Below are positions 42,868 to 43,578 of a DNA stretch of 64,000 nt, piece by piece. Below the pieces are notes generated by a model that saw only the letters and a program-made list of their open reading frames with translations, was not told the origin of the DNA and made no database searches. Source of the DNA: Clostridia bacterium (GTDB lineage: Bacteria > Bacillota > Clostridia > TANB77 > CAG-508); the NCBI GenBank assembly GCA_045643205.1, contig JAZUKI010000003.1:150516-214515 (forward strand), written 5' to 3'. Numbering within the stretch: position 1 is the stretch's first letter; each line of letters begins with the position of its first letter. The position numbers were made by a program, and so were the translations under genes.

Positions 42868-42927
42868 AATAATCTCCTAACAATACAATTATAGCATATT
42901 ATTTAATAAAAATGAAATATGTATAAT

Positions 42928-42956
42928 TTGATTTTTTAATAGAAACATGGTATAAT
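42928..42956 (+). promoter_or_regulatory. Sigma-A-type promoter TTGATT-17-TGGTATAAT at the start of a 0.65-kb ORF-free leader
   Basis: -35 at 42928-42933, extended -10 at 42948-42956. Confidence 0.45.
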
Positions 42957-43531
42957 ATATTCCATATGGTACATTATTCTAGTCATACACATTTTATGAG
43001 GATGGGCCTAAAAATCCATTAAAGGGCATATCGATGAAGTTTCATATAGTATGCGCATTTCTGCCAAGTTTGCGTGTCTATGTGGAGTAAAGAATTTAGG
43101 AGAATATGTAATGGCATATATATGTAATCCTATTTTCGCGGAGGCTTACTTATTTAAGTTAAACCTATATGTTTCAATATAGTGTAGCCCGTCTTGAGTG
43201 AATATTTTGGGATTGAAGATATTTACTGCAAACAATTTGGCCAATGCGTTTGCATCATGAAATAATATTTGCAAAAAAGACTAATAAAATATGTAGTATG
43301 TTAAGGAAAACTTCTAGAATGCTTGCTTTAATAGAGAAAGCATTGAAGTCTAGGGATTAAGGTACGGATTTGAGTGGCGATCTGGTGTCTATTTTTAGAT
43401 ACACTTTTTAAATGGAAACGGCTTAACAGTAATGTTAAGTAGAGTGCAGAGAAATTCAACCAGACCTAAACCGTAAAATTTACTTAGACTTTAACCATTT
43501 TATTTATTTTAACAAGTAAATATATAAAAAT

Positions 43532-43562
43532 GCGGTTGATTAAGTTACAGCCGCTATTTTTT
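43532..43562 (+). terminator. Intrinsic terminator 17 nt upstream of the 43579 gene start (possible attenuator or riboswitch expression platform)
   Basis: GCGGTTG-9 nt loop-CAGCCGC, then TATTTTTT. Confidence 0.5.
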
Positions 43563-43578
43563 ACTAGAAAGGGAAATT

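Follow-up and report, generated by a model that had tools for sequence, protein, structure and literature searches.

The RNA known as OLE (Ornate Large Extremophilic RNA) was reportedly discovered by Puerta-Fernandez et al. in 2006. It is a non-coding RNA, large and structured, that occurs in anaerobic Gram-positive bacteria and has been in Rfam for years, and the studied examples come from Halalkalibacterium halodurans and Clostridium acetobutylicum. In H. halodurans, OLE is very abundant and stable, is cooperatively bound by the dimeric membrane protein OapA, and localizes to the membrane (PMC12265935). The RNA dimerizes and has been proposed to span the membrane, and cells require it to tolerate short-chain alcohols, cold, excess Mg2+, and poor carbon sources; OapA, a relative of MpfA/CNNM, is regarded as a probable divalent-cation transporter, and the precise biochemical function of OLE is still unknown (PMC12265935). 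The proximal promoter of B. halodurans OLE is experimentally active and raises expression more than 100-fold, and the half-life of the RNA is about 3 h (PMC3413148).

Compact forms of OLE from gut Clostridia are also already known, having been catalogued in 2024. In variant 1 of Fernando and Breaker (2024), helices P7, P8, and P9 are shorter and nucleotides of the binding site for a second protein, OapB, are often missing; it is described as widespread, scores in a band of 310-390 bits under the model that its authors built, and occurs most often among uncultured gut bacteria of the TANB77 clade, which have reduced genomes and mostly lack OapB and OapC (PMC11332333).

We analyzed a stretch of 64,000 nucleotides of Clostridia bacterium DNA (the window), and in it the ORF-free interval 42868-43578, which is bounded by a 606-aa gene (41047-42867, minus strand) and a 199-aa ORF with a GTG start (43579-44178). 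We estimate at about 95% the probability that this region is an OLE RNA gene followed by oapA, the two forming a two-gene unit. Its parts are as follows.

41047-42867, minus strand: gene of a 606-aa RelA/SpoT-like protein, divergent from ole, 60 nt separating its start codon from the -35 box of ole
42928-42956, plus strand: predicted ole promoter, with -35 box TTGATT, a 17-nt spacer, and a TG-extended -10 box TATAAT
42950-43514, plus strand: OLE RNA (Rfam RF01071), a full-length model match whose conserved core runs from 42967 (UGGUACAUUAUUCUAGUCA) to 43497 (ACCA, 43494-43497)
43532-43554, plus strand: terminator-like hairpin GCGGUUG/CAGCCGC, of 7 bp including one G-U, with a 9-nt loop
43557-43562, plus strand: U-tract of this putative terminator, the stem being followed by UAUUUUUU, which ends 16 nt before the GTG
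43568-43578, plus strand: ribosome-binding region AAAGGGAAAUU ahead of the GTG, conserved in close relatives
43579-44178, plus strand: oapA (OLE-associated protein A), 199 aa, GTG start
44241-44272, plus strand: predicted terminator of the ole-oapA unit, a palindromic hairpin GCGGUAAAAC-AUG-GUUUUACCGC followed by UAUUUUGUU

In an Rfam scan of the whole window, RF01071 matched with 305.6 bits (gathering score 50, E = 5e-86), over model positions 1-616 of 616 and without truncation. OLE is the single Rfam match in the region, all long invariant blocks of the family are present in the alignment, and the match reaches into the -10 box with its first 12-15 model positions. A permissive scan of 42700-43800 returned no riboswitch or leader family at E ≤ 1; CRISPR-DR47 (23 bits against a threshold of 39) and OxyS (18 against 75) appeared below threshold in the same interval and were rejected as chance matches. 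The only other Rfam match in the window is a tRNA gene at 58892-58964 on the minus strand (62.6 bits).

A first-pass annotation, made from the sequence alone, had described the interval as a structured non-coding RNA with its own promoter, functionally tied to the downstream membrane protein gene, and in these respects it was right; the class and the novelty that it gave the RNA were wrong. It had proposed an unclassified cis-regulatory RNA, had called for an Rfam scan, and had counted assignment to a known element against itself; the full-length match to RF01071 therefore disposes of the word "unclassified." The length of about 620 nt, which had seemed unusual for a leader, is simply the normal length of OLE, here with a core of 531 nt and a predicted transcript of about 600 nt. 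Its more descriptive remarks stand. ORFs inside the interval are all of 43 aa or less, consistent with the statement that none reaches 60 aa; the sole longer one, a 60-aa TTG ORF on the minus strand (43484-43666), overlaps the last 95 nt of the interval and the start of oapA, and so clips the 3′ end only. The comparatively high GC content is real, if modest (32.0% versus 28.8% for the whole window). The many local hairpins are borne out by the predicted 601-nt transcript (42964-43564), which folds with -149 kcal/mol and a z score of -3.9, and the promoter lies exactly where it had been placed, its -10 box being TATAAT with TG before it.

To see how this locus compares with others, we searched a genome collection with the 199-aa protein, which gave 11 loci (L001-L011), mostly from uncultured gut Clostridia MAGs; five further close relatives (L012-L016) were reached via the 606-aa neighbor gene. 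The closest loci carry the titles of uncultured Clostridia, Clostridium sp., and Lachnospiraceae gut MAGs, and one is labeled Bacteroidaceae (L006). In all 11 loci of the search, the homologue is preceded on its own strand by a full-length OLE (317-457 bits) whose end lies 15-110 nt away, and in 16 of 16 related loci the oapA homologue lies directly downstream of OLE in the same orientation. The classical order polyprenyl synthase-OLE-oapA-dxs is found in L010 and L011 and ties the family of the 199-aa protein to canonical oapA. As to L006 (CAVFFR010000014.1, "Bacteroidaceae bacterium"), it is a low-GC, Clostridia-type gatCAB/OLE/oapA locus with a layout nearly identical to that of L009; its label is probably a binning or labeling error in the MAG rather than a case of OLE outside Bacillota. 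Divergent genes for proteins of about 95-105, 486-497, and 483 aa lie upstream of ole in L002, L004, L006, and L009. The first two of this run match GatC and Amidase (GatA-like) in L002, and the run is probably gatCAB; this type of neighborhood is recurrent and differs both from that of the window and from the classical isoprenoid cluster.

The structural elements of the RNA could be placed on the sequence by the Rfam alignment, by published loop sequences, and by the order of the helices.

43001-43020, plus strand: conserved hairpin GAUGGG-CCUAAAAA-UCCAUU, taken as P2, numbered from helix order
43021-43039, plus strand: invariant block AAAGGGCAUAUCGAUGAAG, directly after the presumed P2
43144-43159, plus strand: shortened hairpin taken as P7 from its order before P9
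43164-43183, plus strand: shortened hairpin taken as P8 on the same grounds
43237-43244, plus strand: L9.3 loop UUGGCCAA with a GGCC palindrome, anchored by the published loop sequence
43385-43402, plus strand: P13 hairpin GUGUCUA-UUUU-UAGAUAC, with a 7-bp stem and a UUUU loop, anchored by the published loop sequence
43421-43440, plus strand: P14.1 hairpin with its GUAA (GNRA) tetraloop kept, placed by the Rfam alignment

According to the cmscan alignment, the presumed P7, which follows GGAGGC, has the model's 34-nt insert cut to 4 nt, and half of the stem of the presumed P8 is deleted relative to the model. P13 has neither a GNRA tetraloop nor a bulged nucleotide. OapB binding in B. halodurans requires P13 to carry both a GNRA tetraloop and one bulged nucleotide, P14.1 being a weak secondary OapB site (PMC7936274). 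Hence the primary OapB-binding determinants are absent here. The GGCC palindrome of L9.3 corresponds to the intermolecular kissing loop seen in the OLE dimer by cryo-EM (PMC12286853). Taking a palindromic L9.3 loop (GGCC, GAUC, or AGCU) as the mark of OLE dimerization, we found GGCC in the window OLE; the distal P9 arm with L9.3 is kept in the window and deleted in L002 and L004-L009. An RNA that has lost the OapB site and kept the dimerization loop is useful for asking which parts of the OLE particle are indispensable.

These features make the window OLE a compact form that appears to resemble variant 1, an assignment made from structural features only. The locus is also a clean example of a minimal stand-alone ole-oapA unit, with its own conserved promoter and with terminators, outside the isoprenoid cluster.

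We next considered how the RNA might be transcribed. Promoter-like sites in 42600-44500 are no more frequent than expected by chance (11 versus 12.1 ± 3.0 in shuffled sequences), so that the predicted ole promoter does not stand out when taken alone. Its position does: in 15 of the 17 loci, the window counted, a TG-extended -10 promoter with 17-nt spacing lies 8-14 nt before the conserved UGGU(G/A)CA, and the two loci without a promoter so positioned are L010 and L011, where OLE comes after ispA. The promoter is invariant in the close clade; indeed, promoter, RNA, and terminator are all nearly invariant there. By statistics, promoter and terminator are each unremarkable by themselves; both were taken as real because they are conserved. 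A promoter 8-14 nt ahead of the OLE core means that the primary transcript would start at most a few nucleotides from where OLE begins; in the window we infer a transcription start at about 42963-42965, some 2-4 nt before the first conserved OLE nucleotide.

At the other end of the RNA, an intrinsic terminator had been noted just before the GTG, and a hairpin with a U-tract is present at 43532-43562, at a distance of 16 nt. A simple terminator scan missed it because its loop exceeds 8 nt. Alone, the hairpin is weak (z = -1.6), and yet it forms in both the MFE and the centroid fold of the whole transcript, independently of the OLE body. The L001 and L012-L016 loci have a tighter version with an 8-bp stem and a 4-nt loop (GGCGGUUG-UUUA-CAGCCGCC followed by AUUUUUU), and analogous hairpins lie between OLE and oapA in L002, L005, and L008. 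A hairpin with a U-tract is thus found in 10 of the 17 loci, seven of which form one close clade. Between OLE and oapA there is no hairpin at all in L003, L004, L006, L007, and L009-L011, and the hairpin is therefore not a general feature of ole-oapA. The 43532-43562 element would act as an intrinsic terminator, a lineage-specific one. The promoter scan of the plus strand passed no separate oapA promoter between the OLE 3′ region and the GTG, suggesting that oapA is expressed by partial read-through.

The order of promoter, long structured RNA, terminator, and start codon is real, and the first-pass annotation, having matched the RNA to no known class, had read it as the layout of a riboswitch or attenuator. 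Such a cis-regulatory leader would sense a ligand or signal and switch the 43532-43562 terminator, and the probable dependence of oapA on terminator read-through, no promoter of its own having been found, fits with this. We nevertheless regard a leader as very unlikely. The RNA is a full-length OLE, a kind of RNA that is known as a stable, abundant component of a ribonucleoprotein particle with OapA and that works there and not as a cis-acting leader, and the permissive scan gave no riboswitch family. The terminator folds independently, and neither the MFE nor the centroid fold of the full transcript contains a competing antiterminator pairing, a check that is thermodynamic only. Finally, an intervening hairpin is missing altogether from 7 of 17 ole-oapA loci, and in L010 and L011 OLE is part of a polycistronic cluster of isoprenoid genes.

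Given that the region is an OLE gene, it could be a decaying, non-functional remnant in a reduced genome. Its score of 305.6 bits is well below the 455-457 bits of L010 and L011, P7, P8, and P13 are cut short, the OapB site is lost, and several pairs of the model are non-canonical here; on this reading such features would be signs of erosion. The pattern of conservation, which points to strong purifying selection, makes decay highly improbable. Between the window and L001, DNA identity is 93% in the OLE core, 88% in oapA, and only 66% and 71% in the 606-aa and 407-aa genes on either side; of the whole neighborhood, it is thus the non-coding stretch that is under the strongest constraint. A MAFFT alignment of 12 diverse loci contains about 240 invariant OLE columns, and RNAalifold, applied to the 12 sequences independently of Rfam, predicted 132 pairs, 49 of them with compensatory changes on both sides, so that helices are kept paired. 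In addition, conservation extends to the promoter, the terminator, and oapA, which is intact, and the same compact form is a described and widespread variant (PMC11332333). That the region encodes one or more small proteins instead of an RNA has a negligible chance of being correct, since the several internal ORFs of 32-43 aa must be set against conservation that tracks the helices of an RNA, with compensatory changes occurring in pairs, and not the periodicity of codons, and against an overwhelming covariance-model match.

The protein downstream of the OLE gene has a Lys/Glu-rich N-terminal tail followed by hydrophobic helices. One transmembrane helix carries a DxxxD motif (D121-V-I-G-D125), whose residues D121, G124, and D125 do not vary in alignments of 12 and of 37 sequences; this motif has been named as distinctive of OapA, which is also described as matching CNNM only below threshold (PMC11332333). 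Consistently, the 199-aa protein has a predicted CNNM-like transmembrane fold without CBS or CorC domains, and its match to Pfam CNNM (PF01595) is sub-threshold, at 18.4 bits versus 28.4, below true CNNM/MpfA proteins. No NCBIfam model names the protein, and a PDB sequence search with it gave nothing at E ≤ 1, so that the assignment rests on synteny, motif, and predicted fold. On these grounds, we conclude that the 199-aa protein is OapA.

The 606-aa gene is the divergent neighbor of ole in six of six close relatives (L001 and L012-L016), and the promoter region between the two, about 60 nt off, is largely conserved within the clade. Its product gives a borderline match to RelA_SpoT (nucleotidyltransferase) at residues 374-452 (26.4 bits, cut-off 27) and has only 15 homologues in a database of 5.8 billion proteins. 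Its link to ole may be functional or may be just synteny within one clade. Adjoining the 606-aa gene, a defense/mobile-element island occupies 31090-40727. It includes an HTH protein and the following genes.

31407-33152, 33136-34458, and 34471-37605: hsdM, hsdS, and hsdR of a type I R-M system
37622-38212: T5orf172 protein
38641-39261: small protein with a weak RelA_SpoT match, overlapping the Panacea gene by 4 nt
39258-40010: Panacea/SocA-domain protein
40356-40727: TnpV

The overlapping layout of the genes at 38641-39261 and 39258-40010 suggests a toxin-antitoxin pair. The relatives hold Inositol_P (inositol-phosphatase) and O-antigen-ligase genes at the position of the island, which therefore looks like an insertion.

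On the other side of the unit, a gap of 537 nt (44179-44715) separates oapA from a 407-aa ORF. Every close relative has an HD-domain gene (219-221 aa) here; a remnant of such a gene was considered for the gap and rejected, no trace being found by tblastn. The gap contains a strong promoter-like site (TTGACA-17-TAGAAT with TG, 44271-44299), a perfect 12-nt inverted repeat (44329-44340/44458-44469), a (TAT)8 microsatellite (44395-44419), and a 14-bp GC-rich hairpin (44584-44615), and it folds well beyond shuffled sequences (z = -4.35). Rfam gives no match for it, and a second copy was found neither in the window nor in the fetched loci. Further downstream, local GC content rises to 40% at 46000-46299, where a 66-aa ORF (46057-46257) shows weak conservation in L001, and the 12-nt unit TTAAATTTGGGG is tandemly repeated 6.4 times, with 83% matches, at 46311-46387, in the intergenic region before a gene for a Fur-family regulator. 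This regulator gene and, after it, genes for a ZnuA/ZnuC/ZnuB-like metal ABC transporter together occupy 46562-49533, three genes downstream of oapA. The best NCBIfam matches of the regulator, both sub-threshold, are Fur and PerR, and it is possibly Zur. Metal-ion homeostasis is among the gene classes reported to cluster with ole; the Fur/Znu cassette has no match in the closest relative, L001.

Taken together, an OLE gene followed by oapA would work as follows. An extended -10 promoter of the sigma-A type (42928-42956) would start transcription just ahead of the OLE core, and the resulting RNA, about 600 nt long, adopts the multi-helix architecture conserved in OLE, as judged from the covariance model and covariation. 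Most transcripts probably end at the 43532-43562 hairpin and U-tract, which would give a stable, free-standing RNA, and a fraction would read through to allow translation of OapA, yielding much RNA and little membrane protein. By homology with H. halodurans and C. acetobutylicum, the RNA may dimerize through loops such as L9.3, and OapA dimers may bind it in a ribonucleoprotein particle for stress adaptation at the membrane; nothing in the window speaks against this. A bolder and unlikely extension is that, in this clade of reduced-genome gut Clostridia with an OLE that lacks the OapB site, ole-oapA has become an autonomous module whose terminator may tune the supply of OapA and whose particle may have the RelA/SpoT-like protein as a lineage-specific partner or regulator. 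If the terminator were such a regulator, read-through could depend on folding or binding of the nascent OLE 3′ domain; if the 606-aa protein were such a partner or regulator, OLE would be linked to signaling of the nucleotide-alarmone type.

Among known systems, riboswitch and attenuation leaders have a promoter, a structured RNA, a terminator, and a gene in the same sequence as the window. They differ in that no known aptamer or antiterminator is found here, the RNA itself is the product, and the terminator is lineage-specific. On the protein side, OapA is a distant relative of the transmembrane domain of the CNNM/MpfA/CorB/CorC Mg2+ transporters, and the window protein is only 38%-39% identical to OapA from the canonical context of L010 and L011. 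With canonical OLE, the window RNA shares, among others, the conserved blocks UGGU.CAUUAUUCUAGU, AAAGGGCA.AUCG.UGAAG, AAGGAAAACUUCUAGA, and GACCUAAACCGUAAAAUUUAC, as well as the helix order, the GGCC of L9.3, oapA immediately downstream, and an apparent proximal promoter of its own as in H. halodurans. Unlike canonical OLE, it has truncated P7 and P8 and a P13 without the GNRA loop and bulge, its core is 531 nt and not the ~571 nt of L010 and L011, it is not in an isoprenoid/ispA-dxs cluster, and a terminator-like hairpin separates ole from oapA. Variant 1 has in common with the window short P7 and P8, a partly reduced P9, and loss of the P13 tip that forms the OapB site, and the window's closest relatives are low-GC, uncultured gut Clostridia MAGs. 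Several of the related loci have lost the distal P9.3 arm, whereas the window retains P9.3 together with its GGCC loop.
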